Shown: positions 2,858-60,827 of the stretch, one piece after another
How the letters are laid out: the number at the start of each line of letters is the position of its first letter
Numbering within the stretch: position 1 is the first letter of the stretch
DNA from: Candidatus Kerfeldbacteria bacterium
Lineage (GTDB): Bacteria; Patescibacteriota; Patescibacteriia; UBA9570; XYC2-FULL-38-9
Assembly (NCBI GenBank): GCA_043813585.1
Contig: JBDRKW010000006.1
Coordinates: forward strand, 15,444-79,443
Reading direction: 5' to 3'
Length of the DNA stretch: 64,000 bases
The notes under the pieces: generated by a model
Told to the model about the DNA's origin: nothing
Databases searched by the model: none
What the model saw: the letters and a program-made list of their open reading frames with translations, nothing else
Made by a program: the position numbers and the translations under genes

Positions 2858-4456
2858 TTATTTCTTGAGCGGCCGTTTCTTGTTCACCGGAAACGGATTC
2901 CCAGACAGCGCCATCACTGCATACGCCGTGTTCAGCACTTCGTTACTGTCTGCGCCAAGTAAATCATACTTAAACGCTCCACCACTGCGCGCCAGCGAAT
3001 CCAGGTAATGAAACCCATTCAGATTATTTGTGGTCATTGATTTTGCTTCCTTGCGTTTTGCCCGCAAACCCTGCAATACCCATGCTGTTGATGATGCATT
3101 CGAGGTTGCGTCAACGCCATACCCCCAGCCGCCGTCAGGATTCTGTTGTTGGCGCAGGAACGTCGTCGCATTCGTAATTTTCTGCGTTAGTGATAAACCA
3201 TGTTTGTCCTTTTCTCCTTTGAGCCTGGACGCCATGTTAAGCCAAGCCGCTGTGGTATCAATGTCAGACGCGCTACCAACGGCAAACGATACGCCGCCGT
3301 CATCATTAATACAGGCAAACGTCGCTTCCGCGCCCTGCTTTAATTTCTTCGAATCATACGGCTCATCGGCCGCAATCATCGCCAGCACCGCAAAAATATC
3401 GTCATTGCAGTACGCCGCATCGCCAAACTGCTCGCCATCCATTGTTTTCTTCAAACGCTTCACAAAATTCGCCCCGTTATAATGCCGCGCATCTTTGCCA
3501 ATCGCTTCAAGCGCCATAATATGCCGGGCAAGCTCTGCAGTTCCCTTCTTCGCCATCGGACGGTACTGCTTCACCGCGCGAAACATCCGTTTATCATTCT
3601 TGCCACCAGCCTTCAACGCCATAGCCGACCATTCGGTCAATGCAATGCTGCCAGACACTTTACCGTTGTCATCAATATTTCTCTTCAGGTACTCCACACC
3701 ATTTTCCACCAGCTGCTTTCGCTTATACCGGCCCAGCGAATGGTACTTCTTTACTTTTGTGTAGATGCGAAGCGTCTTTATGTCGGTCTTCGGGTAGCCC
3801 TCTCGCACTGCATACACACTATAGGTTCCCGTCGCGTTTGGCTTGAATATTGCTTCGCCGTTGACATCTGTTGTAACCGTCGTATTCCCTATATGAACTT
3901 CTGAATCGCCGGCCGGTACATATGTACCGCTACCGGCTACCAAGTCATATTCATAATAATCCACAGTGGCGATAACGGTTCCGCCTTCACGCCGATGCTG
4001 TGCATTCAGTTGCAAGCGCAGCGGGGGGTTTGAAACGCCGTAGGTTAGAATAACCTCATCGCCCGGCTGCAGTGCAAAATCATTCATTCCGACTGACGGG
4101 CTCTCATAATTCACATAGTACAGCCAATAGTTCGAGTAATCGCCTGCATACGAATCGATCGAGCTCAGGAAAAACCCAAAACCATCCCAGTATGTTACCT
4201 CATATTCAAACTCACCCATCAACGATGCCGCATGCAACGCGCATAACGCATTCGCTCCGTCCACATGATGCTCTGTGCCTGTTGAATCTTCCACGTCGCA
4301 GCCACCGTCGGTAATATACACTGTTCCGTCATAAACCGTTGCATCGTTTGCTTCTATGCGGACCACCGCATCAACATACGTCGTTGCCGCAGCCGGCAAT
4401 GCAAACACCAGCGCCGCGCCTCCGATAAATAATAATGAAGTTACCATTCGTTTCAT
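2858..4456 (-). CDS. secreted protein with an N-terminal DUF4430 (BtuG/transcobalamin beta-like) domain, an Ig-like domain and a C-terminal alpha/alpha-toroid (prenyltransferase/terpene-cyclase-like, QQNPDGGWGY) domain
   Basis: Signal peptide MKRMVTSLLFIGGAALVFALPAAA. DUF4430-like motifs YWLYYVNYESPSVGMNDFALQPGDEVILTY. PFTA/SQHop-like repeat QQNPDGGWGYGVDATSNASSTAWVLQGL. An alternative start at 4489 would overlap the upstream gene by 25 nt. Confidence 0.6.
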   Translation of the reverse strand: MKRMVTSLLFIGGAALVFALPAAATTYVDAVVRIEANDATVYDGTVYITDGGCDVEDSTGTEHHVDGANALCALHAASLMGEFEYEVTYWDGFGFFLSSIDSYAGDYSNYWLYYVNYESPSVGMNDFALQPGDEVILTYGVSNPPLRLQLNAQHRREGGTVIATVDYYEYDLVAGSGTYVPAGDSEVHIGNTTVTTDVNGEAIFKPNATGTYSVYAVREGYPKTDIKTLRIYTKVKKYHSLGRYKRKQLVENGVEYLKRNIDDNGKVSGSIALTEWSAMALKAGGKNDKRMFRAVKQYRPMAKKGTAELARHIMALEAIGKDARHYNGANFVKRLKKTMDGEQFGDAAYCNDDIFAVLAMIAADEPYDSKKLKQGAEATFACINDDGGVSFAVGSASDIDTTAAWLNMASRLKGEKDKHGLSLTQKITNATTFLRQQQNPDGGWGYGVDATSNASSTAWVLQGLRAKRKEAKSMTTNNLNGFHYLDSLARSGGAFKYDLLGADSNEVLNTAYAVMALSGNPFPVNKKRPLKK

Positions 4457-4464
4457 CTCTGTGT

Positions 4465-5184
4465 TTATAATGATTTTTCGTACGACCATTTTACCGAGTC
4501 GCCTTTATTTAACATTTTTGATGAAATGCCTACAGTCGCCTTCTGTCCATTCACGTAATAAATCCAAAACATGCCGGCATGCAGGTCTTCCTCTAATCCA
4601 TTGATTGCTTTTACATAGGAACCCATTCCTCCAAATGAGGAAGCCGTGTAAATAAAGCCCTTGCTCTTCGCATTCTTCATTAACTGCTCGACTGATGCGC
4701 CGGTGTTGATATCTGCCGTATAGGTTGCCGTCCCAGACGGTGTAACCACCTGCAGCGTTGCAGCATACACCTGCTGCTCCGGTGCTTTTTCCTCCTGCTT
4801 TTTCTCTTCCTTCTGTTCCTGTGCAACTTCCTCGACTTCCTCCGGTTCGGCTTCCAGGTTCGCTTCCTCCGGATCAGCTGCGCCTTGTTCAGGTCCCGCC
4901 GATGTTGTAATGGTTGGCGCATTCTCTTCCGGCTGTTCACACTCCTCTTCAACGGCTTCCTTTACTACTGCATTACTGTCTTTTTTTATCTTTTGATCCT
5001 GTTGTTCCGCAACTTCGTTTACAACGCCTGCTTCAGCGCCCGCAACGACAGACTCGTACGACTGGTTCGCGCCGGCCTGCTGCATTTCATAACCGTTGTC
5101 ATTCACAGATGGGCATGCACCGCCAAGAACAACCGCTGCTGATAGTGTCAGGCCGATAATAATGGTTGTCGTTCGTGTAAACAT
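4465..5184 (-). CDS. secreted/lipoprotein with a C-terminal DUF4430 (BtuG-like cobalamin-binding) domain and an acidic low-complexity linker
   Basis: N-terminal TM/signal ending in a Cys (LGGAC). A Glu/Gln-rich linker. C-terminal FIYTASSFGGMGSYVKAINGLEE...GMFWIYYVNGQKATVGISSKMLNKGDSVKWSY matches DUF4430. Confidence 0.6.
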   Translation of the reverse strand: MFTRTTTIIIGLTLSAAVVLGGACPSVNDNGYEMQQAGANQSYESVVAGAEAGVVNEVAEQQDQKIKKDSNAVVKEAVEEECEQPEENAPTITTSAGPEQGAADPEEANLEAEPEEVEEVAQEQKEEKKQEEKAPEQQVYAATLQVVTPSGTATYTADINTGASVEQLMKNAKSKGFIYTASSFGGMGSYVKAINGLEEDLHAGMFWIYYVNGQKATVGISSKMLNKGDSVKWSYEKSL

Positions 5185-5197
5185 AGTTGTTGAAACA

Positions 5198-5395
5198 AAA
5201 AACCCGCAGACAATGCAGGCGCGGGTGACGATTCGTCACGGGACTCGCATGCTTTTTGCTCGAAAGCGTTGTCGCGATAGCAAGCGGCCTGGCTTACCGT
5301 CTTCATGACGACGGATTACAGTTGCGGCACAGCTCCGGATTCACACCGGATTCCCTTGCTGCCCCATCTACCGGGGCAAGGCATAATTTTTTAAG
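5198..5395 (-). promoter_or_regulatory. cobalamin riboswitch (aptamer plus terminator expression platform) in the 5' leader of the DUF4430 operon
   Basis: The minus-strand RNA contains UGCCCCGG..GGGGCA, AAGGGAAUCCGGUGUGAAUCCGGAGCUGUGCCGCAACUGUAA, hairpin CCGUCGUCAUGAAGACGG and AAGCCAGGCC. It is followed by a CCCGC..GCGGG hairpin plus U6 ending about 15 nt before the ATG at 5184. Confidence 0.75.
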
Positions 5396-5429
5396 GTAAA
5401 AGCAGTATAGGCGATCGCCTGTCTGGCTG

Positions 5430-6440
5430 TCAAATAAGGTTGGTGACTTTTGCGATAAACACGGCGTACAAAAACAGCATGGCCGCGCCTTCCCACAGCC
5501 GGATCTTGTCATCCAGCGTCACGAAGAACGCGACAAACGTTGCGATAATCAAAAATGGGAGGCCGACCATGAAGGTGACATCCGTGAGTCCAAGGTCCGC
5601 AAACAGCGCCGGAAAGCCACCAACCAGCAGCAGGTTAAACGTATTCGAACCAAAAACATTTCCGATGGCCAAGGCATGGTTGCCCGCCCTAATCGCGGCA
5701 ATAGACGTAAGCACTTCGGGCAACGACGTACCAATCGCGACAACCGTGATAGTAAGCATTGAAGATGAAATGCCGAGCAGTTCTGAAATATTAAGAACAC
5801 TGTCAATCAGGAACTTCGCGCTTATACCGAGTGCTCCCGCGCTGATAAGGATAATGAATAGGTACAACCCCCAGGGAATGTTTCCTTTTTTGCCTTTCTT
5901 CCCTTTCTTATCGGCATATTCATCCTTAAGATCTTGCAGCTCTTCTTTGTTCTCCTCTTTCTCTTTTTTACTGGTATCGGGCTTAACGGAGTAAATCAGG
6001 AAGATGATAAACAGGCCGAGAAGGAACAGCCCCTCTCCCCTCGTAATCGTCCGGTCGAGCGCAAAGAACGTAAACAGCGCCATGGACGTGAAGAAAAACG
6101 GCAAGTCAACATCAATAAGCGATGTCTTCACTTTGAGTGTTTTGGCGACTACTGCGCCGATGCCCAGGATAAGAAGCGCATTGGCGATGTTGGAACCGAT
6201 GATGTTGTCTGCAACGAACGTGGTCACACCCGAGTGAACCACTGCCAGCGTGGAGGTGATGAATTCCGGAAGCGACGTGCCGATGGCAACAATGGTTGCG
6301 CCGACGATAAACGAGCTCAAACCAAGAGCCAGGCCAAGTTTCTCGCTGTACCGCGTGAAATAATCTGCCGACTTCACCAGGACCACGAGGCAGACAATCA
6401 ATACGGCGAACCAAAAAATTATCTGTAGCATATTTGCCAT
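5430..6440 (-). CDS. Ca2+/Na+ antiporter, CaCA (YrbG) family
   Basis: Two alpha-repeat GTSLPE motifs, 10 or more TM helices, and a central K/E-rich cytoplasmic loop. Confidence 0.75.
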   Translation of the reverse strand: MANMLQIIFWFAVLIVCLVVLVKSADYFTRYSEKLGLALGLSSFIVGATIVAIGTSLPEFITSTLAVVHSGVTTFVADNIIGSNIANALLILGIGAVVAKTLKVKTSLIDVDLPFFFTSMALFTFFALDRTITRGEGLFLLGLFIIFLIYSVKPDTSKKEKEENKEELQDLKDEYADKKGKKGKKGNIPWGLYLFIILISAGALGISAKFLIDSVLNISELLGISSSMLTITVVAIGTSLPEVLTSIAAIRAGNHALAIGNVFGSNTFNLLLVGGFPALFADLGLTDVTFMVGLPFLIIATFVAFFVTLDDKIRLWEGAAMLFLYAVFIAKVTNLI

Positions 6441-9170: not shown

Positions 9171-9731
9171 ATGAAAATCTACACAAAAACCGGCGACACC
9201 GGCGAAACAAACCTCCTCTGCGGCGCGCGCATCACAAAGGCGCACCCGCGCATCGAAGCGTACGGCACGGTGGACGAGCTGAACGCCTGCCTCGGCATCG
9301 CAATCGCGGACGGGCGCGAACGCAACACCGGTATCAATGTGGAACGGCTGCTGCGGCCGATTCAGCGGGAACTCTTTATTATCGGCTCCCACCTGGCAAC
9401 GCAGTGCGAACCGAGCACCATGTCCAAATCCATCCCCCCGCTCAAGGACGACGCGGTCCAGCACCTGGAACATGAAATTGACGAGCTATCGGAGTCGCTG
9501 CCCCCGCTGAAAAACTTCATCCTGCCGGGCGGCACGACAACCGGCGCGCACCTCCACCTCGCGCGGACCGTTTGCCGCCGCGCCGAGCGGGCTGTCATCC
9601 GCCTTTCCCAAAATGAAGAGATACCGCCCATCATGGTGCGGTACCTCAATCGATTGTCTGATTACTTGTTTGTGCTCGCCCGCGCGGTCAACGCGGACCA
9701 GGGCGCTTCCGAAGAAACCTGGGAAGCGTAG
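9171..9731 (+). CDS. PduO-type ATP:cob(I)alamin adenosyltransferase
   Basis: N-terminus MKIYTKTGDTGETNLLCGARITKAHPRIEAYGTVDELNA is typical of the PduO/MMAB family. Confidence 0.8.
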   Translation: MKIYTKTGDTGETNLLCGARITKAHPRIEAYGTVDELNACLGIAIADGRERNTGINVERLLRPIQRELFIIGSHLATQCEPSTMSKSIPPLKDDAVQHLEHEIDELSESLPPLKNFILPGGTTTGAHLHLARTVCRRAERAVIRLSQNEEIPPIMVRYLNRLSDYLFVLARAVNADQGASEETWEA

Positions 9732-9745
9732 CCAACTCGTCCGGT

Positions 9746-12079
9746 CTAAGGCCAGTAGTCAACCGCCGGGACGATCCCGCCCTGTGAAACCGACAAACCG
9801 CGGATCAGGTCGTCTTTCTGTCCGTCCGTATTCTGCACGCGCACGGTGTACCGGCCGGCCGGCATGGACTGAATGGGCATCTCCACCACGATGCGGGTTG
9901 AAGAAATGACATAGGTATTTACGGCGTTGTACGGGCCGATCTTCGCCGTTATCCCGTGGCGGAAATCCGAACCGTAGACGTCCACTTTTGCGTTCCCGCC
10001 GCCAAACCATTCTTTTCCGATAAGGCCGGGTGAAACGAACGACAACGCCGGGGCCGGATCGGTATAAGGCACGTTTCCGCGGATATCAACCGAACGGATC
10101 ATATCATTCCACATATCGGCGACCAAAACCTTGTTCTTCAGACCGAGCATGCCTTTAGGATTATTGAACTTGCTGTCGGTGCGGCTGCCGTTCTGAAAAC
10201 CGCGCGCGCCAGAACCGCTCACCAGTTTCGTCACCTTGTTCGCCCGGTCGATCGCGCGGATCCGGTTGCTGCCGACCTCGGAAACGTAGAGATGGCCGTC
10301 CTTCCCCCGCTCAATCCATTCCGGATACGAGAACAGCGCCTGGTCCAGGGTCGCATCCAGGTAGCCGTTGCTGCCGGTGCCGGCAAACGTCGTCACCTTC
10401 TTCGTCTCCAGGTTCAGCCGGCGGATGCGGTGGTTGTCGCGGTCCGCAATATACAGGTATTTTCCGGACTTGCTGCGCGTGATGCCGATCGGCGCGTGGA
10501 ACTTCGCGCTCAGCGCATCGCCGTCCGCATACCCGGCAGCTCCGGTGCCCGCAATCGTCTTCACCTTGCCCTTGTTCGGACCGATCAGCGTCACCCGGCG
10601 GATCACATTATTACCCGCATCCGTCACAAACATGAACTTGCCGTTGCGCGAGCGCACCGAACCCATCGGCCCGCTGAAATACGCGCACCCGGATTCGCCC
10701 GTGTCAAATTCGTTCTTGCACGGCATGCCGTCCTGCAGGTCGTTGTAGTTGGACGAATGCATGTTGATCTTTCCGGCGCCGGTCAGGTATTTCGTTTCGC
10801 CGGTGGCGATCACCACTTCGCGGATCCGGTTGTTGTTGCGGTCAACCGCAAATATCTTCTCGCCGTTTTTCGAAACGACAAACGACGAGATGTCGGAAAA
10901 CCGCGCATTCTCTCCGTAGTAGGATTTCTTGTCATCAGCATTATAGTTGTCGATCACATTGCCTGCGATCACTTTTGACGATTTCCCGCCCCGCTTCATC
11001 TGCCGCAGGCGGTTGTTCTCGGAAAAATATATCTTTCCCTTGTCCTTTGACAGCCGCATGAACTTCGGCCGTCCGACCAACACCGGTTTTTTCTTCTTTA
11101 CGTTGAACCGGTTCTTGCCGGCGAACTTCTCGTTCACGTTCGCGTCGCTTAGCTTGTACTTCTGGATAATGCCGATTCCGGTTGAAGCAACATACAGGTA
11201 ATTGCCGTAGTGCGTCAGCCCGCGCGGGTAGTTGATCGAAACCATGTTCTTGTCCGACGCAAAGGTGGAAACGGTACAGCCCGAAAGGTCAATCTTGCGG
11301 ACATAATCGTCATACCCGTTCCCGTCGCTCACATACAGCGTATTGTCGTCCGTCAGGTGCACGCCCCACAGGTTGTTGAACGTGGCGCTGCCGCAGCCCC
11401 CGTCCTTATGGCCTTCCGACCCGGTTCCGGCAATCGTGGTTATGGCGGTGGTGTTCAGGTTCACGCGCTTGACCTGGTGCGTGCCCGCGTTGGCAATATA
11501 CGCGTATTTCCCGTCGCTTGTGATGGCCAGTTTCTTCGGGTTGTTCAGAGAACCGGAGATGTTCGTCACGGCCCCTCCGTAAATGGAAACTTTTTTTAAT
11601 TGATTGTTGCCGGTGTCCAGGAAATACACCCAGCTGCCGGACACGGCCACGCCCTGCGGCTTGTTGAGCCCGCTCACAACCGTTGTCACATATCCGTCCT
11701 TGATCCGCTTGATCTTGCCGTTATCCGTATCAGCCACAAAAATCATGCCGCTGCCCTGGGCCACGCCGGCCGGGAGCGCAAAACGCGAGCTGCCTGATGA
11801 TCCGTTCTGGTCGCCGTACGAGCCGTTGCCGGCGATGGTTTTTACCTTGCCGGTGCGGGTGATGCGGCGGATGACGTTGTTATAGGTATCGGCAATGATA
11901 AACCCGCCTTTAGAATTGACGGTGATATCTTCCGGAAAGTCGAAATACGCATTCAGCGGGGCTTTGCCGTCACCCCAATAGATACGGCTCTTGTAGGTTG
12001 TCGTGTCGCCGTACGCGGCATGCGCAACGATCGGCAACAGCAATGCGGCAATGAAAACCGCGATGGCTTTGCGAAACAT
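9746..12079 (-). CDS. secreted NHL-repeat protein with a C-terminal IPT/TIG domain
   Basis: Signal peptide MFRKAIAVFIAALLLPIVAHA. Repeated YVADxxNxRIRR-type NHL blades. C-terminal Ig-like IPT domain (TVRVQNTDGQ). Confidence 0.65.
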   Translation of the reverse strand: MFRKAIAVFIAALLLPIVAHAAYGDTTTYKSRIYWGDGKAPLNAYFDFPEDITVNSKGGFIIADTYNNVIRRITRTGKVKTIAGNGSYGDQNGSSGSSRFALPAGVAQGSGMIFVADTDNGKIKRIKDGYVTTVVSGLNKPQGVAVSGSWVYFLDTGNNQLKKVSIYGGAVTNISGSLNNPKKLAITSDGKYAYIANAGTHQVKRVNLNTTAITTIAGTGSEGHKDGGCGSATFNNLWGVHLTDDNTLYVSDGNGYDDYVRKIDLSGCTVSTFASDKNMVSINYPRGLTHYGNYLYVASTGIGIIQKYKLSDANVNEKFAGKNRFNVKKKKPVLVGRPKFMRLSKDKGKIYFSENNRLRQMKRGGKSSKVIAGNVIDNYNADDKKSYYGENARFSDISSFVVSKNGEKIFAVDRNNNRIREVVIATGETKYLTGAGKINMHSSNYNDLQDGMPCKNEFDTGESGCAYFSGPMGSVRSRNGKFMFVTDAGNNVIRRVTLIGPNKGKVKTIAGTGAAGYADGDALSAKFHAPIGITRSKSGKYLYIADRDNHRIRRLNLETKKVTTFAGTGSNGYLDATLDQALFSYPEWIERGKDGHLYVSEVGSNRIRAIDRANKVTKLVSGSGARGFQNGSRTDSKFNNPKGMLGLKNKVLVADMWNDMIRSVDIRGNVPYTDPAPALSFVSPGLIGKEWFGGGNAKVDVYGSDFRHGITAKIGPYNAVNTYVISSTRIVVEMPIQSMPAGRYTVRVQNTDGQKDDLIRGLSVSQGGIVPAVDYWP

Positions 12080-12159
12080 AAGCGATGGTTTAATGGTTTG
12101 TTTTATTCACTATGCCACAGCAGGAGCGATTTGTAAAAGCATTTTTCAGATAAAAAAAC

Positions 12160-12200
12160 GAGACCGGGGCCGGCTTCGTGCGATTGATGTGATCTCTCGC
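12160..12200 (-). terminator. rho-independent terminator at the 3' end of the high-GC island
   Basis: Minus-strand RNA CGAAGCCGGCCCCGGUCUCG + U7. Confidence 0.5.
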
Positions 12201-12248
12201 TCGAAGCCGACCGCCGGTCGCTTGCCAGTCTTTGGCTACACCGCGGTA

Positions 12249-13898
12249 CTACCAGTACCGCGGACACTCGCTTGGGTCGATGCCGGGCCCCGGAGCCGCA
12301 CCGCTCGCGCACCGCGCCAGCATGTCCACCCTGTTGGTGAGCACGTTGGCGTTCCCGGTGAACGTCGAGCAGGCTCCGATGATGTCGGTCGCGGTCCCCA
12401 CCACGAAGGTGTTCGTGGGACCGTACGTGTTCCGGAGCTGAATCCTCTGCTCACCGGCCCACTTCCCCGAGGGGTTGTGGTCCAGCGTGGTGATCTTCCC
12501 CGAAGGGATGTCCACCACCGGTCCCGACATCTGGTTCCCGTACATGTCCCGACGGACCACTCGCATCCAGTTGCCCTGCCCCTCACGGATCGAGATCCGG
12601 TTGGTGCCGTTGGGCAGCTGGGTGTTGCCGCAGATCCCCACGTAGATGGGGTCCCCGCCGTCGGCCGCCATCTGCAGGTCCGCCCGCCCCACGTCCGCGG
12701 TCTCCCCCAGTCCGAGGGCGACCACGTACGGAAACGTTGCGTCCCTGCTCATGACGTACTCGACATCGCCGGCCTTGAACCCCCCGTAGAGGGCCATCAG
12801 GACGACCGTCAAGATTCCAATGCCTCCGAAGAGGAGAACGGCAGAGAGAAGCCATTCACTCTTCAGGGATCCGACTCCGATGAGCAGCAGCAGTACCGCG
12901 ACCGTGGCGAAGAACCAGGGGCTCTTCGTCATGCTGCCGCGCGAGTCCGGAGTCGCGCCCGCTGCCTGCTTCAGCACCTGGGCACCCGTTGCCACGACCT
13001 TGTCGGCCGTGGTGGAGACCGTCGGGGATCCGCTGCTGCTTCCGCTTCCGCCGTTCTTCTTCTCCTCCAGCTCCTTCTCCACGGTGGAGATGTACTCGGC
13101 AGGGTTGTCCCCGATGCGCACGCCGTGCTCCACCCAGGAGTCCATGGTGGCCTGGTGCTTCTCATCGTACTGCTGGTAGCGCACCACACCCCCGTTGCGC
13201 TCGCTCTTCTTCGACACGCGAATGCCGATGAAGGTCGGGTCACCGCTGGGGATGGTGGGGTGGTAGCGGCAGCCTTTTCCCAACCGGCCGATGTTCACCG
13301 GGTGTGCGGTATCCGTGATCTCGTCCAGAGACTCACGGGCGTAGGGGCTCACGTGGGGGCAGATCGCCACCGTCTTCTCGCCGGTCCAGGGGTTCATGTA
13401 CTGCGGGACGAGCAAGCCGTCCACAGCCGAGAAGCCCCCGACCAGGACAGAGATGACGACGAACGACCAGATGGCCACTTTGGGTGCATCGGCCACGAGC
13501 TTGAGCCAGAGGCTCGCCGCAACCGCCACACCCACCACGCCGATCGGGATAGTCGCGACCCGGAGGATCAGCGGCCATTCGAACACCGTCATCAACCACG
13601 TGATCGACCGGAACATCATCCAGTCGACCACCACGAGCACCCACAGAACCAGCAGGATGTTCCCGACCTTCTTCAAGGTCGGGGCCTGCATCTTGATGTA
13701 GAGCCCGTAGATGAGACCGACGATGCCGAGGTACCCGACCGACAGGATGATCGTGCCCAGGGTGATACCCACGGGCAGGCCGATCATCTGGGAGGTCAGC
13801 GTGATGACGTAGAAGAGGGTCGCCAACAGGCCGACCAGGACGGAGGGAATGACGTACCAGAGGTGCGCCTTGCACCAGGTTTTGATCTTGTTCAACAT
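12249..13898 (-). CDS. large polytopic membrane protein of unknown function inside the high-GC island. Cys-containing extracytoplasmic domains.
   Basis: 549 aa. About 6 N-terminal TM helices plus a central TM pair. Realistic amino-acid composition, whereas the overlapping + strand 1003-aa ORF is R/G/P/H-rich artefact. Confidence 0.6.
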   Translation of the reverse strand: MLNKIKTWCKAHLWYVIPSVLVGLLATLFYVITLTSQMIGLPVGITLGTIILSVGYLGIVGLIYGLYIKMQAPTLKKVGNILLVLWVLVVVDWMMFRSITWLMTVFEWPLILRVATIPIGVVGVAVAASLWLKLVADAPKVAIWSFVVISVLVGGFSAVDGLLVPQYMNPWTGEKTVAICPHVSPYARESLDEITDTAHPVNIGRLGKGCRYHPTIPSGDPTFIGIRVSKKSERNGGVVRYQQYDEKHQATMDSWVEHGVRIGDNPAEYISTVEKELEEKKNGGSGSSSGSPTVSTTADKVVATGAQVLKQAAGATPDSRGSMTKSPWFFATVAVLLLLIGVGSLKSEWLLSAVLLFGGIGILTVVLMALYGGFKAGDVEYVMSRDATFPYVVALGLGETADVGRADLQMAADGGDPIYVGICGNTQLPNGTNRISIREGQGNWMRVVRRDMYGNQMSGPVVDIPSGKITTLDHNPSGKWAGEQRIQLRNTYGPTNTFVVGTATDIIGACSTFTGNANVLTNRVDMLARCASGAAPGPGIDPSECPRYW

Positions 13899-13964
13899 TT
13901 CGGTATCTCCAGGCCCGGGAGCGATTGCAGCCGCCCCCGGGCATCAGTGTTGTCGTTCTGCGTT

Positions 13965-15086
13965 CTACTTGTTGTCCTTCGAGCCGGAGCCCGAGGACGA
14001 CCTGCTGCTGATCCAGGCCTCCGCGAGCGGCCGCAGGAGCGTTCCCGCGGTCGCCACAGCGGCCACCATGTTCTTGCCGGCCGGGTCCAGTCCCGCGCCG
14101 ACCTTGTTGACGACGGCCGCGGTCTCGGTAGCCGTTTCGCTGGCGGCCGACTGGATGGCCTTGGTCTTGATCCTGGTGACCTCGAGGCCGTAGTCGCGGA
14201 GGTCACCGTTGAGGAGCTGCTTCGCGTGGCTGTTAATCCGCGCGAAGTTCTCCGGGGTGTGGTGGCCGGAGTCGGTGATGATCTCCGCCCCATCAGCGCC
14301 CAGCCGGGTCAGACCGACGTTGTAGGCCGGCCCGAACAACTGCTTCACGACGTCCACCGGCTTCTTGTCGAGCCGGGTCAGCAACTGCTGCGCGATCTTC
14401 TCGTCCACCAGACCGCTGTCGGAGCGGCGGACGCGGTAGTAGACCACGCAGTCAACCTTGTACGACTCACCACCGGGGTTGACGGTGATGGTGAGCTCGA
14501 TCTGCTTTTCGGACAGGTCGATGTCGGCGTACGGCATCATGAAGAGGGGCAGCCCGATAGCCACCTGGCCGGCGCCCATGCCGTTGACCGTCCATCCGCC
14601 TTCCGAGTCGATTCCGCCAGTCAAGACGTTTCGGAACACGCGGACCTGATCGGCGGGCAGCATCCGCAAGTGGCTCTTGCCCCTGGCGTCGGACACGATC
14701 TCGCTCGTGATGAGCGTCGTGTCCTCGCCGCTGCCGGTGGTCGGGGTCGCGGAGCCGCTGCCGCTCTTCTCCGACTTGTCGCCCTTGCGACCGAAGAAGA
14801 GGTAGACGGCCAGCGCTCCGGCCGCGATGAGGCCGAGCAGCAGGACGATCAGACCGAGGATCCAGCTCAACGCGCCCGTGAGCGCGCTGAGGATGACCAC
14901 CGCGTTGATGCCGATGGTGACCAAGACCTTGCGCTTGGTCGTCCACCAGCTGTCGCTGCTCTCGGTGGGCGGGGTGGGGGCGGTCGGCGGGGTTCCGCCG
15001 GTCGAACCGGTTGAGGTTGCGGGGGCGCTGGAGGGCGTGGTGACGCCCATGTCCAGCATGTCGATTCCCGAGTGGTCGATTTCCAT
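13965..15086 (-). CDS. SPFH/band-7-like membrane protein with S/T/P/G-rich termini, inside the high-GC island
   Basis: Single N-terminal TM. The core ...IELTITVNPGGESYKVDCVVYYRVRRSD...DYGLEVTRIKTKAIQ resembles the SPFH fold. The assignment is tentative. Confidence 0.45.
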   Translation of the reverse strand: MEIDHSGIDMLDMGVTTPSSAPATSTGSTGGTPPTAPTPPTESSDSWWTTKRKVLVTIGINAVVILSALTGALSWILGLIVLLLGLIAAGALAVYLFFGRKGDKSEKSGSGSATPTTGSGEDTTLITSEIVSDARGKSHLRMLPADQVRVFRNVLTGGIDSEGGWTVNGMGAGQVAIGLPLFMMPYADIDLSEKQIELTITVNPGGESYKVDCVVYYRVRRSDSGLVDEKIAQQLLTRLDKKPVDVVKQLFGPAYNVGLTRLGADGAEIITDSGHHTPENFARINSHAKQLLNGDLRDYGLEVTRIKTKAIQSAASETATETAAVVNKVGAGLDPAGKNMVAAVATAGTLLRPLAEAWISSRSSSGSGSKDNK

Positions 15087-32563: not shown

Positions 32564-33874
32564 TTAATCTGTATTTTCCAGATCCTCAAGCACGATATCC
32601 CATGCGTCCGAAGCGACCGGTTCCGGCCGGCCATGCGACGGAAAGGCATGCATATCAATATAGGGCAGGCTGTTGGCCTCGAGCACTGCGCATTCCTGGC
32701 CAGTATGCGGCTGATTGACCTCCGGACAGATAAAATCGATCCCAACCAGGTTCGTCTGCAGCAATCGGGCAATGTCCAAAAATAATTGAATATTCTCCGG
32801 ATGCACATCATCGATGACATTCACCACGTCCGCCCCCTGGGACAGGATATGTTTGGGCTGAAGAAGAACCACCTGACCCACGTCTGGAACAGAATCGAGG
32901 TTCAGCGCCTGTTGCGCGAGCTGCCGCTCCAGCACGTCGTCAAGCGGTATTTCAAACAGCGTGACGTTGGGTTGTCCCCTTTTTCCGCGGCGTTCGTCGG
33001 CATTTTTTATCTCAACCAGTTGCCGGATGGTCGAGTCGCCATCGCCCACAACATTTGCCCGGTCGCGGCGGCACACATATACCTTCCTCTGCCCGATGAC
33101 TGTCGCGCGGTACAGCGGCCCGCGTATAAACCGCTCCACGATAATATCCGGGCGGTACGCGCGGCAATCGCGGATCGCGCGTGCGAGTTCCTCTTCTGAA
33201 TTGATATCGACAAACGTGTGGCAACTTAATGAACCGCCGTTCGGCTTAACGACCAGTGGAAAACCAAGATGCATCCCATAATTATAGGCGCGGCGTGCTG
33301 TGTAGAAGCGTTTCCCTTCTGCCACCGGAACCGCGTGATCGGCCAATAATTTTTTCATTCGAAATTTGTCGTCCACATTAACAATCAGTGGATCACGGAT
33401 TTTTAACGGAATGCATTCATAATGGTGGCGCCTGCCGTTTGCGAATAAGACATACTCGTTCATCGGTCTGCCGAAAAACGTCAGTGCGCGTACATCCAGC
33501 TGCCTGCGCTGCGCTTCCCGGAAAAAAATGAGGCTCCGGTTGAGGATCTTCTCTTCATCCACGTCGCGCGCCAGCCGAATCACGGTCAATTTAGAAAGCA
33601 CAAAAACAGCACCGCGTCCTGCCAATGACGACAAATTCCGCATCGGCGTACGCGCCGCAAAACGAGAAACCGCCTCAAAAGGAACCAGCATATGGTCAAC
33701 CATAAAATCAATGCGGGCATGGAGATGCGTCCGCCGCTTTGTGGGCAGGCAATGGATGCAGTATTTATTTTCCATAGCTGTAGGATACACGAAAAATTGA
33801 TTGGCGCCAGGGTAAAAAAAATCGGCATGCCTGTCCTCTGCAGTTGCATGCCGTACCGGTATCGTTCTGCGCAA
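32564..33874 (-). CDS. ATP-grasp protein resembling the N-terminal half of cyanophycin synthetase (CphA), without the Mur-ligase half
   Basis: VVKPNGGSLSCHTF...VVGDGDSTIRQLVEIKNADERRGKRG...DVVNVIDDVHPENIQLF...GIDFICPE aligns with the CphA ATP-grasp domain. Confidence 0.6.
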   Translation of the reverse strand: MRRTIPVRHATAEDRHADFFYPGANQFFVYPTAMENKYCIHCLPTKRRTHLHARIDFMVDHMLVPFEAVSRFAARTPMRNLSSLAGRGAVFVLSKLTVIRLARDVDEEKILNRSLIFFREAQRRQLDVRALTFFGRPMNEYVLFANGRRHHYECIPLKIRDPLIVNVDDKFRMKKLLADHAVPVAEGKRFYTARRAYNYGMHLGFPLVVKPNGGSLSCHTFVDINSEEELARAIRDCRAYRPDIIVERFIRGPLYRATVIGQRKVYVCRRDRANVVGDGDSTIRQLVEIKNADERRGKRGQPNVTLFEIPLDDVLERQLAQQALNLDSVPDVGQVVLLQPKHILSQGADVVNVIDDVHPENIQLFLDIARLLQTNLVGIDFICPEVNQPHTGQECAVLEANSLPYIDMHAFPSHGRPEPVASDAWDIVLEDLENTD

Positions 33875-33889
33875 TTCGTGCAGGCCGTC

Positions 33890-35917
33890 CTACCGGTGGA
33901 CGAACTGGGCCTTGACCCGCGGACCGTTCGTCACGAAGTTCGTGAGGCCGATGATGTGATCCTTGGTCTCACCACACCTACCGGACGCCTTGGCTTCCTC
34001 CATGAGGCCCTCCGCGAGCGGTTTCTCGATGCCGCGCATCACCACGCCCACCAGGATGTCGTCGATGGCCCGCGAGCGATGCCCGATGTCTACCTGCAGC
34101 GGCGCGTCCGGGATGAGGCTCGGCTTCACCGGCCTGGCGTCCATCGGCTTCATCTTGAAGGTGGACGCCCCGTGGGTCAGGATCATCTCCCTGGCCCACT
34201 TCATTGGATCCAGGTTGATGGCGTCGGCCCACCCATATTCCAGTGCGGTAACCGCGCCGATCGCCACGCCCGCGCGGAGCATCTGGAGCGCGCGATCCAC
34301 GCCCACCAGCCGCGGAAGTCGCTGGGTGCCGCCGTACCCGGGAATGATGCCCAGGTTGACCTCGGGCTGGCCGATCGCGGCGTCCGTGCTGATGACGCGC
34401 TTCCAGCACGCCATCGCCATCTCCGCGCCGCCGCCGAGGCAGAGCCCCTTGACCACGGCCACGACCGGCTTGGACATGGCTTCGATCTGGAGGGTCAGCA
34501 GCTGGCCGGCGCGTGGGAACTGCGCCATCTCATCGGGCTTCCCGCGCAGGTCCGCCAGCTCGGTCACGTCAGCTCCGGCGAGGATGCCGTTGAAGCCGGT
34601 GAAGATCACGCCCTTGACGGAATCGTCGCCATCGAGCTGCTTGAAGGCCATCGAGAGCTCCAGGATGGTCGCCGCGTTGAGCGGGTTCACCGGCGGCCGG
34701 AACACGGTCACGGTCGCGACACCGCTACTGTCGACGTCCACCTTGACGTTCTTGTAGACCTGCGGCAGCTGGCCGTCATCCGGAATCCTGTCGCTCTCGA
34801 ACAAGGCGGGCGGTTCGTAGTTGATGAACCCGTCGTTCACGGCGGCATCGAACCAATCGAACAGGTTGGCCGCACCGGCGTGGCTCATCATCTCCACTAC
34901 GCCCTTGTTGAACGCGAGCGCAGTGCGGGAGATCCAGTTCAGGTCGAACGCGCTGACCACGCCCTTCTCGAGCAGGTGCAGCGCCAGGCCGGCGAGGTAG
35001 GCCTTGCACACCGACGCGATCTTCTCGTACATGACCCCGTCGATCTGCTCGTCCTCCTCCGAGGCCTCCCGATGGTTGTACCACGGCGTCGCGTCCTGGG
35101 CGCGCATCATCGCGGTCATCGGATCATGGAGGCCGAACAGCCCGGTCTGCGCCCAGTACTCCAAGCACTCAGCCGTGAGGTTGTTCGCGTTCGGGATGAG
35201 GATGTGAACCAGGAACACCCCGCCGCCGCCGATCTCCCGATTGAGGACGTTGTTGACCTGGCGAGGCGTGCCCCAGTTGGCGTTCACGAGTCCGCACGCG
35301 CAGTCCATCATCCCGCAGAACAGGATGTTGCCCGCAAACAGCGGGCTGTCCGCCACGTGCACCGGCACCTTGCCGAGCCGGCGCAGCGTCTCGTCCGCAC
35401 GCGCAGTCATCTCGGGGTTCCGGGACGCCGTGAGCTCCATGACCGGATTCTTCCACGCCGGGAAGAACGGGTGCATAACGAAGCACCTCTCCTTGTACAT
35501 CGAGTCGCGCGCGATCTCGCTGCACGGCAGCGACGACGTCGTGAACCCGATCAGGCAGTCTGCCGGCACCAGCTCCTCGGTCTGCGCCAGGATCCGCCGC
35601 TTGAGCTCCAGGTTCTCGGTCGCGGCCTCGATCACCAGGTCGAAGTCGGTTCGGCTCTGCGGACCGCCCTTGAGCGAATCGCTGAACTCGAAGCACGACA
35701 GGATTTGCGACTTCACCGTCGCCGACATCTTCCCGCGCGCGTGGCCCTTCTCGGCTAGCTGCAGGATCTCCTTCTTGGCCGACTCAAGCACCCTCGCGTT
35801 GATGTCCGCGAGCACGACGCAGCAGTCGCCCTTGAGAGCCGTCGCGAACGAGTACGCCAGCCCTCTGCCGATGGATCCGGCACCGATGATTCCGATCAAA
35901 AACTCTTTCTGTATCAC
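33890..35917 (-). CDS. bifunctional 3-hydroxyacyl-CoA dehydrogenase / enoyl-CoA hydratase (FadB/FadJ-like, dehydrogenase domain first). High-GC gene.
   Basis: NAD-binding IGIIGAGSIGRG, HPFFPAWKNPVMEL motif, crotonase VAVVKGLCLGGGAEMAMAC. The opposite strand carries a 688-aa R/H/P-rich artefact ORF. Confidence 0.75.
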   Translation of the reverse strand: MIQKEFLIGIIGAGSIGRGLAYSFATALKGDCCVVLADINARVLESAKKEILQLAEKGHARGKMSATVKSQILSCFEFSDSLKGGPQSRTDFDLVIEAATENLELKRRILAQTEELVPADCLIGFTTSSLPCSEIARDSMYKERCFVMHPFFPAWKNPVMELTASRNPEMTARADETLRRLGKVPVHVADSPLFAGNILFCGMMDCACGLVNANWGTPRQVNNVLNREIGGGGVFLVHILIPNANNLTAECLEYWAQTGLFGLHDPMTAMMRAQDATPWYNHREASEEDEQIDGVMYEKIASVCKAYLAGLALHLLEKGVVSAFDLNWISRTALAFNKGVVEMMSHAGAANLFDWFDAAVNDGFINYEPPALFESDRIPDDGQLPQVYKNVKVDVDSSGVATVTVFRPPVNPLNAATILELSMAFKQLDGDDSVKGVIFTGFNGILAGADVTELADLRGKPDEMAQFPRAGQLLTLQIEAMSKPVVAVVKGLCLGGGAEMAMACWKRVISTDAAIGQPEVNLGIIPGYGGTQRLPRLVGVDRALQMLRAGVAIGAVTALEYGWADAINLDPMKWAREMILTHGASTFKMKPMDARPVKPSLIPDAPLQVDIGHRSRAIDDILVGVVMRGIEKPLAEGLMEEAKASGRCGETKDHIIGLTNFVTNGPRVKAQFVHR

Positions 35918-40923: not shown

Positions 40924-40995
40924 CTGGGGAGGAGGGATTCGAACCCCCGAATGCAAGGACCAGAACCTTGTGCCTTACCGCTTGGCGACTCCCCA
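40924..40995 (-). tRNA. tRNA-Gln (anticodon CUG). CCA not encoded.
   Basis: The reverse complement TGGGGAGTCGCCAAGCGGTAAGGCACAAGGTTCTGGTCCTTGCATTCGGGGGTTCGAATCCCTCCTCCCCAG folds as a cloverleaf with a U1:A72 pair and a TTCGAAT T-loop, and is near-identical in its D/T arms to E. coli tRNA-Gln. Confidence 0.85.
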
Positions 40996-44290: not shown

Positions 44291-46828
44291 CTAAATAAAC
44301 GCATCAGGTCCTAGTGAATGCGTTGCGCCCAATTTATCAAGCTGTGCGCGTTCTTTAATATCATCTTCCACCTCTTCGCGCGGACGCCCATATTTCAGGC
44401 GCGACAGCTCCTTGAGAGTTTCTATCAGTTTCGGGTCGCCCTCGGGCGGCATGATTGTCGTCATGTTAAACGGCCTGGAAGCGGTGTTTTCAATCAATAA
44501 TTTCATGTTCGCGGTATATTTTTCCACATTGATGATATCGTTCTCATCAAATACCGGTTCAAACTCCTTCACCAATACCTCAGCGTCCTCCGCACCCACG
44601 CGGAACGCGAGCATAGTGCCGGCATTGCCGAATACGGCATCCCGCACTTTTGCGTCATTATTCACGACCAGTTGGCTGACATACTGGTGGGCCATGATCA
44701 TATTCAGCTTATATTTTCTGGCTTCAGATAAAATGATTGCAATCGAGTCCGTGGCAAAATTCTGGAACTCATCCATGTAGAGGTAGAAGTCCTTGCGCTG
44801 CTCTTTCGGTATATCAGCGCGCGCCATGGCCGCCATCTGGATCTTCGTGACTAGAATCAAGCCAAGCAGAGATGAGTTCACTTCGCCGATCTTGCCTTTG
44901 GACAAGTTCACCAAAAGAATCTTCTGGTTGTCCATCACCTCGCGAAGGTTGAACGCGGAATCTTTCTGGCCGATGATATTGCGCATCATGTCATTCGTCA
45001 GGAACCGTCCGATCTTGGAAATGACATACGAAAGCATATCCGCGGCCTGCTGCCCTGCCTGCGACTGCTCATATTCCTGCTCCCAGAAATTCTTCACGAT
45101 CATGTTCTTCACATTCGCGACCTTCTCTTTGCGGAACGTATCGTCCGTAAACATGCGCGGAATTTCCACCAATGTCGCGCCGGCCTCCTTGTCCTCCATC
45201 AGCGCCAGCATGGCGTTGCGCATGTAGTGCTCAAACATAGGGCCGATCATCTCTTCGCCGAACAGCTTGTAGAAAATCGCCACCATCTCCTGCACCGCAA
45301 AATCCTTCTGCTCGTCATTCTCGTATTCAAGCATGTTCAAACCCATCGGCCGCGACGTATCGCCCGGATCAAAATAGATCACATCGTCCGCGCGCTCCTT
45401 TGGGATATGCTTCATTACGTCCTCTACCAGGTCGCCGTGCGGATCGATAATCGCCACGCCCTCGCCGTTTTGGATGTCCTGGATGGCGCAGTACTGCAAA
45501 AAGACGGATTTACCGGAACCGGACTTACCGATCACATACATATGGCGGCGGCGGTCATCGCGCCTGATGCGCACCTCTGTCTCCGCACCGCGGTATTCAA
45601 TTTTACCGAGGATGATCCCCTCTTTCGGCATGTTCGACGGCGGCGGCGACTTGCGGGACAGGAGCCAGCGGATATTCGGTGTTTCCGTGTTTGTCAGCGG
45701 CAGGTGCCACAGCGACGCCATCTCTTTCGTGTTCAGCACATAACTGCCTTTCTCGTTGAAATGCCTGTAAATGAAATCCTCAATCAGCTCCTCGTCGCTC
45801 GACGGCTTGCTGGCAATGAATTTATTGCCGTACTGGTAGCCGGTATATTGGGTGAATGCGTTCAGTATATTGGTAAGCTTCATGGTCGCGAGCTCTTTGT
45901 TCGCAGCCGACACCACCACGCGGATATTCACGTCAAATCCGGACTTGCTGGTTTTTTCCTCCAGCATTTTCACGACCTCCTCTTCCATGGGCGACAGTTT
46001 GTATTCACGTTCCGTCTGCGGATCAATGCCCTGCCCTTCTTTGTTTTTGCCACGTGACAATCCCTTGCTGAATTCACGTATCACTTTGGAAATGGGATTG
46101 CCTGTTACTTCTGCCATCGCCTGGTCAAGCCGCTTCCCCTGCTGCATGGTTTGCGCGACTTTCACCGGCAGTCTGTGCCATTCCGGACGGGCCGAGCGCA
46201 GCACAATCTGGATGGCCGCGCCTTCTTCCTTTGTAAACTTCGACATTACGTTCGTAATCGAGTTCAGCGGATCAGATTCCATCTTGTCATAGGAGTTGAT
46301 CGCAAAAATCTGGCTCTTCTCCAAACGCAGCCGGGAACCGACAATCACGCCCTGCGGTTCAAAAATATTGTAATCTTCAACCTCAATGATTTGCGCGGAT
46401 TCGTACTGCGCCTGCAGCTGCTGTTCAAAATATTGCCGCATATACCGCGGGACCGCCGCATGAAACGTTACCAACCCATCACAGTCGGCAACTATCTCCA
46501 AAGAAAAATGGTCGGTACGGCCATACAGCCAGGCCTTAAATCCGCGCTGGGCTTTCACGCCGCCCATAGTCGCAAACAGTACTTCAGCAACCGAGATGCG
46601 CTCCTGCACCTGGTCGCGCGTCAGCTCCTGCTGCCCGCCGCCTTCTTCCTGGCTCTCCTTCGGAATCGTAACTTGCAGCACCACCATCTGGAACGCGCGC
46701 GGCTTGCGGAGGCTCTTCCGGATAATCGCACGCACGACAAAAAGCGCGGCAATCAAAAGTGCAACCGAGACCGCGATATACGCCCCGATCAGTACCAGTA
46801 TGTTGAGTCCGGCTATGAAATCGAACAT
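44291..46828 (-). CDS. membrane-anchored FtsK/HerA-superfamily ATPase, VirB4/TraC-like (type IV secretion/conjugation-type)
   Basis: N-terminal TM. About 400-aa N-domain. Walker A GKSGSGKS near residue 420. Walker B YLYMDEFQNF. ARKYKLNMIMAHQ motif as in VirB4/TrwB-type ATPases. Confidence 0.55.
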   Translation of the reverse strand: MFDFIAGLNILVLIGAYIAVSVALLIAALFVVRAIIRKSLRKPRAFQMVVLQVTIPKESQEEGGGQQELTRDQVQERISVAEVLFATMGGVKAQRGFKAWLYGRTDHFSLEIVADCDGLVTFHAAVPRYMRQYFEQQLQAQYESAQIIEVEDYNIFEPQGVIVGSRLRLEKSQIFAINSYDKMESDPLNSITNVMSKFTKEEGAAIQIVLRSARPEWHRLPVKVAQTMQQGKRLDQAMAEVTGNPISKVIREFSKGLSRGKNKEGQGIDPQTEREYKLSPMEEEVVKMLEEKTSKSGFDVNIRVVVSAANKELATMKLTNILNAFTQYTGYQYGNKFIASKPSSDEELIEDFIYRHFNEKGSYVLNTKEMASLWHLPLTNTETPNIRWLLSRKSPPPSNMPKEGIILGKIEYRGAETEVRIRRDDRRRHMYVIGKSGSGKSVFLQYCAIQDIQNGEGVAIIDPHGDLVEDVMKHIPKERADDVIYFDPGDTSRPMGLNMLEYENDEQKDFAVQEMVAIFYKLFGEEMIGPMFEHYMRNAMLALMEDKEAGATLVEIPRMFTDDTFRKEKVANVKNMIVKNFWEQEYEQSQAGQQAADMLSYVISKIGRFLTNDMMRNIIGQKDSAFNLREVMDNQKILLVNLSKGKIGEVNSSLLGLILVTKIQMAAMARADIPKEQRKDFYLYMDEFQNFATDSIAIILSEARKYKLNMIMAHQYVSQLVVNNDAKVRDAVFGNAGTMLAFRVGAEDAEVLVKEFEPVFDENDIINVEKYTANMKLLIENTASRPFNMTTIMPPEGDPKLIETLKELSRLKYGRPREEVEDDIKERAQLDKLGATHSLGPDAFI

Positions 46829-60755: not shown

Positions 60756-60827
60756 CACCCGCACGGGGAATCGAACCCCGATTACCAGGATGAGAACCTG
60801 GCGTCCTGACCGTTAGACGATGCGGGC
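60756..60827 (-). tRNA. tRNA-Glu (anticodon CUC). CCA not encoded.
   Basis: The reverse complement GCCCGCATCGTCTAACGGTCAGGACGCCAGGTTCTCATCCTGGTAATCGGGGTTCGATTCCCCGTGCGGGTG gives a cloverleaf with an anticodon stem CCAGG/CCTGG and loop TTCTCAT. The D-arm resembles E. coli tRNA-Glu. There is a G1:U72 wobble. Confidence 0.8.

Follow-up and report, generated by a model that had tools for sequence, protein, structure and literature searches.

Cobalamin riboswitches are among the commonest riboswitches. Class I aptamers (Cbl-I) have a P2 arm and a long extension of P6, class II aptamers (Cbl-II) have neither, and the hybrid yvrC aptamer of Bacillus subtilis combines a P2 arm with a small P6 hairpin (PMC7367189). 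The kissing loop of these RNAs always keeps at least one unpaired nucleotide (PMC5028336). For the metE riboswitch of Priestia megaterium, mutagenesis has shown how the kissing loop is coupled to a terminator (PMC10327014). In the present work, we analyzed a cobalamin riboswitch in a stretch of 64,000 nucleotides (nt) of DNA from a Candidatus Kerfeldbacteria bacterium of the candidate phyla radiation, or Patescibacteria (64 kb, hereafter the window; G+C content 53%). It lies in the minus-strand leader 5185..5429, whose 245 nt separate a Na/Ca-exchanger gene (5430..6440, PF01699; stop at 5430) from the ATG at 5184, with which the first of two genes for DUF4430 proteins begins.

Identification of the riboswitch

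A scan of the whole window with cmscan against Rfam 15 (4227 families) at the gathering threshold returned the cobalamin family RF00174 as the sole non-tRNA match, with a score above gathering (43.1 vs. 31.5 bits; Table 1). An earlier inspection of the letters, the sequence-only reading, had placed the cobalamin aptamer core AAGGGAAUCCGGUGUGAAUCCGGAGCUGUGCCGCAACUGUAA on the minus strand of this leader and had proposed a covariance-model search as a check; the core was found there, and the search agreed with it. All consensus core motifs (GGGAA, GGUG..AAUCC, GCCGCAACUGUAA and the B12 box AGCCAG) are present, both on direct reading and in the RF00174 alignment. The GCCCC/GGGGC hairpin, the hairpin CCGUCGUCAUGAAGACGG after the core and the subsequent AAGCCAGG that the same reading had listed were all located. 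Our analysis adds to them the sigma70-like promoter, with a predicted transcription start at about 5397 on the minus strand, the P13/L13 hairpin and the hairpin between P13 and the terminator.

Judged from its sequence, the leader is very probably a cobalamin-sensing OFF riboswitch heading a two-gene operon. The riboswitch is a genuine but ordinary member of a well-known family, detected by a standard Rfam model; the RNA itself adds little, and the novelty is confined to the host lineage and to the genes pointed to.

Table 1. Features of the riboswitch, its operon and a nearby adenosyltransferase gene, in window coordinates.
Feature	Coordinates	Strand	Score, energy or source
Promoter, sigma70-like, TTGACA/18-nt spacer/TATACT	5433..5404	-	11/12 consensus matches
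Cobalamin riboswitch aptamer	5266..5391	-	RF00174, 43.1 bits, gathering 31.5, E 1.6e-7
5' hairpin UGCCCCG-GUAGA-UGGGGCA (GCCCC/GGGGC)	5378..5360	-	-11.6 kcal/mol, z = -2.6; aligned to P2 by Rfam
P3 5' strand AGCAAG, then J3/4 GGAA (5354..5351)	5360..5355	-	Realigned register, 6-bp helix
P4/L4 UCCGG-UGUGAAU-CCGGA	5350..5334	-	-6.5 kcal/mol
J4/5, P5 and L5, GCUGUGCCGCAAC; L5 = UGCCG	5333..5321	-	P5 pairs from Rfam alignment
P6 base, CUG paired with CAG	5321..5319, 5291..5289	-	Rfam alignment
Distal P6 hairpin CCGUC-GUCAUGAA-GACGG (18 nt), in place of P7-P11	5314..5297	-	-7.1 kcal/mol
B12 box AAGCCAGG	5295..5288	-	Direct reading and RF00174 alignment
P3 3' strand CUUGCU, preceded by J6/3 GCCG (5288..5285)	5284..5279	-	Realigned register
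P13/L13 hairpin GCUUU-CGAGCAA-AAAGC, candidate L5 partner	5267..5251	-	Preceded by 11-nt linker; weak by itself
Predicted antiterminator 5' strand GCAUGCG; begins with the 2 nt that end the P13 3' strand	5252..5246	-	Folding only
Hairpin GUGACG-AAU-CGUCAC, between P13 and terminator	5239..5225	-	-5.9 kcal/mol, z = -3.35
Predicted antiterminator 3' strand CGCCUGC, overlapping the terminator 5' arm	5221..5215	-	Folding only
Intrinsic terminator GCCUGCA-UUGUC-UGCGGGU + U6; 7-bp stem, 5-nt loop	5220..5197	-	-9.0 kcal/mol, z = -3.2
Gene 1, 239 aa, DUF4430	5184..4465	-	PF14478, 3.2e-15, residues 162-237
Gene 2, 543 aa (longest open reading frame; NCBI version 532 aa, start 4456)	4489..2858	-	PF14478, 9e-9
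PduO-type cobalamin adenosyltransferase	9171..9731	+	PF01923, 4.8e-61; adjoins truB, 4 kb from riboswitch

Conservation in orthologous and metagenomic loci

About 40 homologues of the 543-amino-acid (aa) protein were found, with identities of 33-56%, and a profile scan of species-representative genomes yielded 13 full-length orthologous loci (L001-L013). Every one of them has the aptamer core on the same strand, ahead of a small DUF4430 gene and the gene for the 543-aa protein, and carries the L5 core, the B12 box and a P13/L13 hairpin with conserved loop and variable stem sequence. A promoter immediately upstream of the aptamer, with 9-11 of 12 consensus matches, is likewise common to all 13. 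The stretch GCUGUGCCGCAAC covering J4/5 to L5 is identical in the window and 12 of the 13 loci; L001 has ACUGUGCCGCAAC, with one change in J4/5, and L5 is thus invariant across all 14 sequences. Gene order is also conserved, with the Na/Ca exchanger or other genes ahead of the small DUF4430 gene, which is followed by the 543-aa gene and then by a convergent AI-2E transporter gene.

RF00174 matched five of the 13 loci at gathering level, on the same strand. Among the remaining eight, seven gave sub-threshold matches and L005 none. The best-scoring model was RF01482 (gathering 50) for L013 (48.2 bits) and L003 (47.3 bits), and RF01689 (gathering 36.5) for L006 (35.3 bits); the other sub-threshold loci matched RF00174 at 25-28 bits. 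From their sequences, the orthologous leaders look like Cbl-II RNAs, without the 5' hairpin, which is missing from all 13. A terminator consisting of a hairpin and a U-run was detected by script in 10 of these leaders, and a weaker one was seen by eye in L001; in L010 (3613..3630) and L012 (3568..3585) there is no terminator, and the ATG follows about 16 nt after P13. The same aptamer therefore appears to be coupled to translation in L010 and L012 and to termination in other relatives. These leaders form a compact natural series, with one core, a terminator or ribosome-binding-site platform, and a P6 hairpin present or absent, which would be useful for studying how L13 is coupled to the expression platform.

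A MAFFT seed alignment of seven leaders misplaced the GGGAA register and the B12 box; no covariance model was built, and anchor-based scripts were used instead. A metagenome scan in which L5 was fixed and the other positions were free gave 120 additional loci, and the counts below refer to about 123 non-redundant sequences. A P4 of 5 base pairs (bp) is formed in 121 of 123 relatives by more than 40 different stems, and the middle pair of the P6 base is U-A in 70, G-C in 32, C-G in 15 and another combination in 6 (no control was computed for these two counts). The distal P6 stem has at least 4 bp in 78 of 89 sequences (mean of 25 in chimera controls), and P3 has at least 5 bp in 66 of 119 (control mean 34, maximum 45). 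A formal pair count over P4, P5 and the P6 base was made on 11 length-matched sequences in a near-gapless alignment. It found 93.6% of cells paired and a covariation of 0.407, compared with 0.100 in shuffles, none of 500 of which was as high; covariation was far lower with slid partners, and compensatory changes occur at three P4 pairs.

The motif CG-N-GC occurs 14-50 nt 3' of the B12 box in 111 of 125 relatives, where shuffling gives 30 expected (L5 fixed at UGCCG), and nine further relatives have CG-NN-GC, with two middle bases. Among 109 sequences the middle base is A in 97, C in 7, U in 3 and G in 2. A P13 stem of at least 4 bp surrounds the motif in 83 of 109, against a mean of 47 and a maximum of 65 in chimera controls, and 78 different stems were counted. 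The two constant halves of the L13 motif, CG and GC, are complementary to GCCG in L5, and the one or two bases between them differ freely among sequences. The pattern fits a kissing loop of four pairs with a bulge, in line with the published rule of an unpaired nucleotide (PMC5028336). Because L5 never varies in the sequence set, this is consistency rather than proof.

Peripheral elements are highly variable around the single core. L012 (3519..3568) has no distal P6 hairpin whatsoever, in L005 (about 2900..3025) P4 and P5 are separated by an insert of about 60 nt, a hairpin is inserted in L4 of five leaders (L004, L007, L010, L011 and L012), and the P6 of L192 is packed with tandem repeats (GTAGTCAGTACAAA). 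Of 123 riboswitches with the UGCCG L5, 31 (5.4 expected) contain a 5' leader motif UU(U/A)A(C/A)AA (UUAACAA/UUUACAA) at a distance of 18-38 nt upstream of P4. In the window it reads UUAAAAAA (5385..5392, minus strand), and in L006-L010 and L012 it stands right after the -10 box; this motif may be the equivalent of the J1/3 T-loop.

The loci L001, L004, L007, L009, L010, L012 and L013 come from metagenome-assembled genomes (MAGs) labelled "uncultured Gammaproteobacteria," with proteins 35-51% identical to the 543-aa protein. These titles are probably wrong taxonomic labels.

Structure and class of the aptamer

In comparison with Cbl-I (e.g., the T. tengcongensis riboswitch, PDB 4GMA), the window RNA shares the best-scoring family, the core of GGGAA, P4, L5 and B12 box, the four-way junction and a hairpin at the P2 position. 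It differs in that the distal 18-nt hairpin takes the place of P7-P11, the P6 extension that makes up the adenosyl pocket of Cbl-I (53 model positions are reduced to 4 nt in the RF00174 alignment), and in that no P1 was found in it. The yvrC riboswitch is similar in its P2-type arm, its small P6 hairpin only and its kissing loop to P13 (PMC7367189), the last of which is a proposed element in the window, but the hairpin of the window has no detectable flanking P1 and the T-loop of L2B is not conserved; the likeness is one of architecture. With Cbl-II (env8 Cbl-IIa, RF01689; adenosylcobalamin [AdoCbl] type, RF01482) the window shares the short P6 stem-loop and an L13 hairpin 10-50 nt after the aptamer, whereas it matches RF00174 best, has a 5' hairpin in place of the J1/3 bulge and bears a terminator instead of a ribosome-binding site hidden in L13.

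In a local search, two other members of clan CL00101 overlapped the RF00174 match at lower scores and were suppressed. RF00174 beats both of these clan members with and without the 5' hairpin (37.2 bits without it, still above gathering), and their own scores are masked by clan competition. Cbl-II members are defined by a J1/3 bulge in place of a P2 module and by a best match to a Cbl-II model; here the 5' hairpin is there and RF00174 is the best model. Rfam aligns this hairpin to P2, a Cbl-I trait, with the L2B pair flagged as non-canonical. The sequence-only reading had suggested the shorter AdoCbl-variant class. The long P6 extension is indeed absent, and some orthologues match RF01482 or RF01689 best, but the window itself does not. 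Because the extension is absent, RF00174 outscores its clan and the 5' hairpin is aligned to P2, the window RNA is of mixed architecture and not a clean member of the AdoCbl-variant class. Ligand preference is not readable from class architecture.

The initial Rfam alignment dropped J6/3 and left P1 unpaired. In the realigned register P3 has 6 bp, and J3/4 and J6/3 have 4 nt each; a parallel P3, GCAGG/CCUGC, was seen by eye in L081. The sole candidate for P1, a 5-bp GCGAU/AUCGC helix, sits inside the promoter spacer and was rejected.

Expression platform and proposed mechanism

The terminator of the sequence-only reading is present together with its U6, but the CCCGC/GCGGG register proposed there is less stable than the one in Table 1 (-7.5 vs. 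-9.0 kcal/mol). Its distance from the gene had been overestimated at about 15 nt; the last U lies at 5197, which leaves 12 nt to the ATG. As long as the terminator 3' arm has not been made, the nascent transcript has a minimum-energy fold (-15.9 kcal/mol) that contains the helix GCAUGCG/CGCCUGC around the middle hairpin (5239..5225). This antiterminator and the hairpin alone give -14.1 kcal/mol, in comparison to -10.2 kcal/mol for P13 with the hairpin. P13, the middle hairpin and the terminator are compatible with one another in a single fold (-19.4 to -21.5 kcal/mol), and an OFF switch is therefore favored. In most terminator-bearing orthologous leaders, the nascent fold pairs L13 or the 3' side of P13 with the terminator 5' arm.

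Most likely, this B12 riboswitch shuts off two secreted, putatively B12-binding proteins through premature transcription termination. Transcription would begin at the sigma70-like promoter, and the RNA would fold into the 5' hairpin and then into the four-way-junction aptamer, with P3 (AGCAAG/CUUGCU), P4, P5/L5 and a P6 with its short hairpin. With a corrinoid bound, L5 (UGCCG) would dock on L13 (CGAGCAA), GCCG pairing with CG(A)GC and leaving a bulged A. Docking would keep the weak P13 closed and disfavor the antiterminator, so that the terminator would form and RNA polymerase would halt 12 nt short of the start codon. When no ligand is bound, P13 would open, and its last two bases together with the next five (GCAUGCG) would pair with CGCCUGC of the terminator 5' arm; the antiterminator would then enclose the middle hairpin, and both DUF4430 proteins would be made. 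The proposed mechanism resembles that of P. megaterium metE, where the kissing loop stabilizes P13, the 3' side of P13 rivals the terminator 5' arm and a structured region lies between them (PMC10327014). The kissing loop of the window would differ from the metE CCG/CGG in being the bulged GCCG/CG(A)GC.

Four other antiterminators were considered and rejected. A helix between the P2/P3 5' strand GGGGCAGCAAGGG and the terminator 5' arm (-11.9 kcal/mol) would span 100 nt and is unseen in relatives, and pairing of the same arm with GCCAGGC of the B12 box appears at one transcript length only and is also unseen in relatives. The A-rich L13/P13 tract could pair with the U-run only once termination has happened. 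Pairing of UUGCU in the P3 3' strand with AGCAA of L13 is available in only some relatives.

Several observations weigh against termination control by a cobalamin OFF switch. The antiterminator, at -14.1 kcal/mol, is less stable than the terminator state (-16.2 to -21.5 kcal/mol). It shares just 2 nt with P13, unlike that of metE, and is also unlike the L13-based antiterminators of relatives, in which, for example, the L13 bases GAGCAGG pair with the terminator arm CCUGCUC. The leader as a whole folds no better than its shuffles (z = -0.32), a search of the 5' leader against the sequence 3' of P3 revealed no convincing P1, and the Rfam alignment flags the P1 pairs as non-canonical. With L5 invariant throughout the collected sequences, the kissing loop gains no support from covariation. 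The ATG at 5184 has no visible Shine-Dalgarno sequence ahead of it, the DUF4430 operon contains no membrane transporter, and no B12-dependent enzyme was found among those open reading frames of the window that were scanned.

The absence of a terminator in L010 and L012, where L13/P13 holds the ribosome-binding region as in env8 (PMC5028336), and the position of the terminator 3' arm GGAGCAGG of L007 directly before the ATG would suit an output of the same aptamer that is chiefly translational or dual. In the window, the terminator hairpin and U-run would then occlude the initiation region 12 nt away, or Rho or RNases would act on the untranslated leader. We consider such an output unlikely: in the window a canonical hairpin is followed by six U, no purine-rich ribosome-binding sequence lies in or near P13 or the terminator, and the script found terminators in most relatives. 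That the copy is decayed or non-responsive, the terminator attenuating constitutively after the undetectable P1 and odd J6/3 have abolished binding or switching, is very unlikely. The deletion of J6/3 in the first Rfam alignment and the moderate score of 43 bits speak for decay, but the realigned register yields a normal 6-bp P3 and a 4-nt J6/3, as in relatives. In addition, the core, L13 and the promoter are conserved though the proteins are only 37-56% identical, and the compensatory changes show selection on structure.

We regard an ON switch, in which ligand binding would prevent termination, as more improbable still. An activating corrinoid riboswitch is known from A. halodurans cobT, but there P13 and the terminator share bases and are mutually exclusive (PMC10327014). 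In the window P13 and the terminator are separate, and the minimum-energy fold contains both. Moreover, B12 normally represses genes for its uptake and binding.

Downstream genes and their probable link to B12

The product of gene 1 starts with a hydrophobic segment that includes a Cys, continues with an acidic low-complexity linker of about 130 residues and ends in a DUF4430 domain; an NCBI entry from a Candidatus Kerfeldbacteria MAG matches it with 100% identity. The product of gene 2 consists of a signal peptide, DUF4430, a beta-sandwich region and a C-terminal alpha/alpha toroid. The domain assignment made in the sequence-only reading thus holds for both genes. That reading had also described DUF4430 as the fold of BtuG and transcobalamin; the second half of this statement stands, since transcobalamins have DUF4430 as their C-terminal domain type (PMC4350170), but BtuG is a seven-bladed beta-propeller (PMC10404256). 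No PDB sequence was matched by the 239-aa protein in a phmmer search, and AlphaFold, run on the single sequence, gave no usable model of its DUF4430 domain (pLDDT, predicted local distance difference test, of 39.5).

Capture of B12 by the DUF4430 proteins is plausible. Eukaryotic intrinsic factor and transcobalamin are built from the same two domain types, DUF4430 and the alpha/alpha toroid, which appear here in reversed order. If both proteins bind B12, they would represent a bacterial equivalent of the B12 carriers of animals, to which they might also be related, and they would offer a first handle on B12 acquisition by these reduced bacteria. We tentatively raise the possibility that the riboswitch flags a module for corrinoid scavenging that is lineage-wide in a Kerfeldbacteria-like clade within the candidate phyla radiation; this module would comprise a membrane-tethered DUF4430 protein and a secreted protein with DUF4430 and an alpha/alpha toroid.

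The riboswitch is of value chiefly as a pointer to genes for B12 scavenging in bacteria of the candidate phyla radiation: it ties two uncharacterized secreted DUF4430 proteins to B12 in tiny-genome bacteria, and the link between riboswitch and DUF4430 recurs in 13 related genomes. In our literature search, no paper joining riboswitch, Patescibacteria and cobalamin was found, and the papers on the candidate phyla radiation and riboswitches showed no sign of one; searches on DUF4430/PF14478 and on Patescibacteria riboswitches found almost nothing.

The PduO-type adenosyltransferase gene (Table 1) is syntenic in related genomes (L201-L204), a few kb from the operon. Its proximity indicates only the cellular capacity for AdoCbl synthesis.

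Other features of the window

A 777-aa NHL-repeat/TIG protein is encoded at 9746..12079 on the minus strand, where several shorter plus-strand open reading frames overlap it, and its homologues border the equivalent neighborhood in relatives. Two large plus-strand open reading frames, 12003..15014 (1003 aa) and 33692..35758 (688 aa), have no Pfam match. An 845-aa protein encoded at 44291..46828 (minus strand) combines TrwB/VirD4-like coupling-protein and TraG-D_C domains. Rfam also identified two tRNA genes, both on the minus strand, at 40924..40995 (57.6 bits) and 60756..60827 (60.6 bits).
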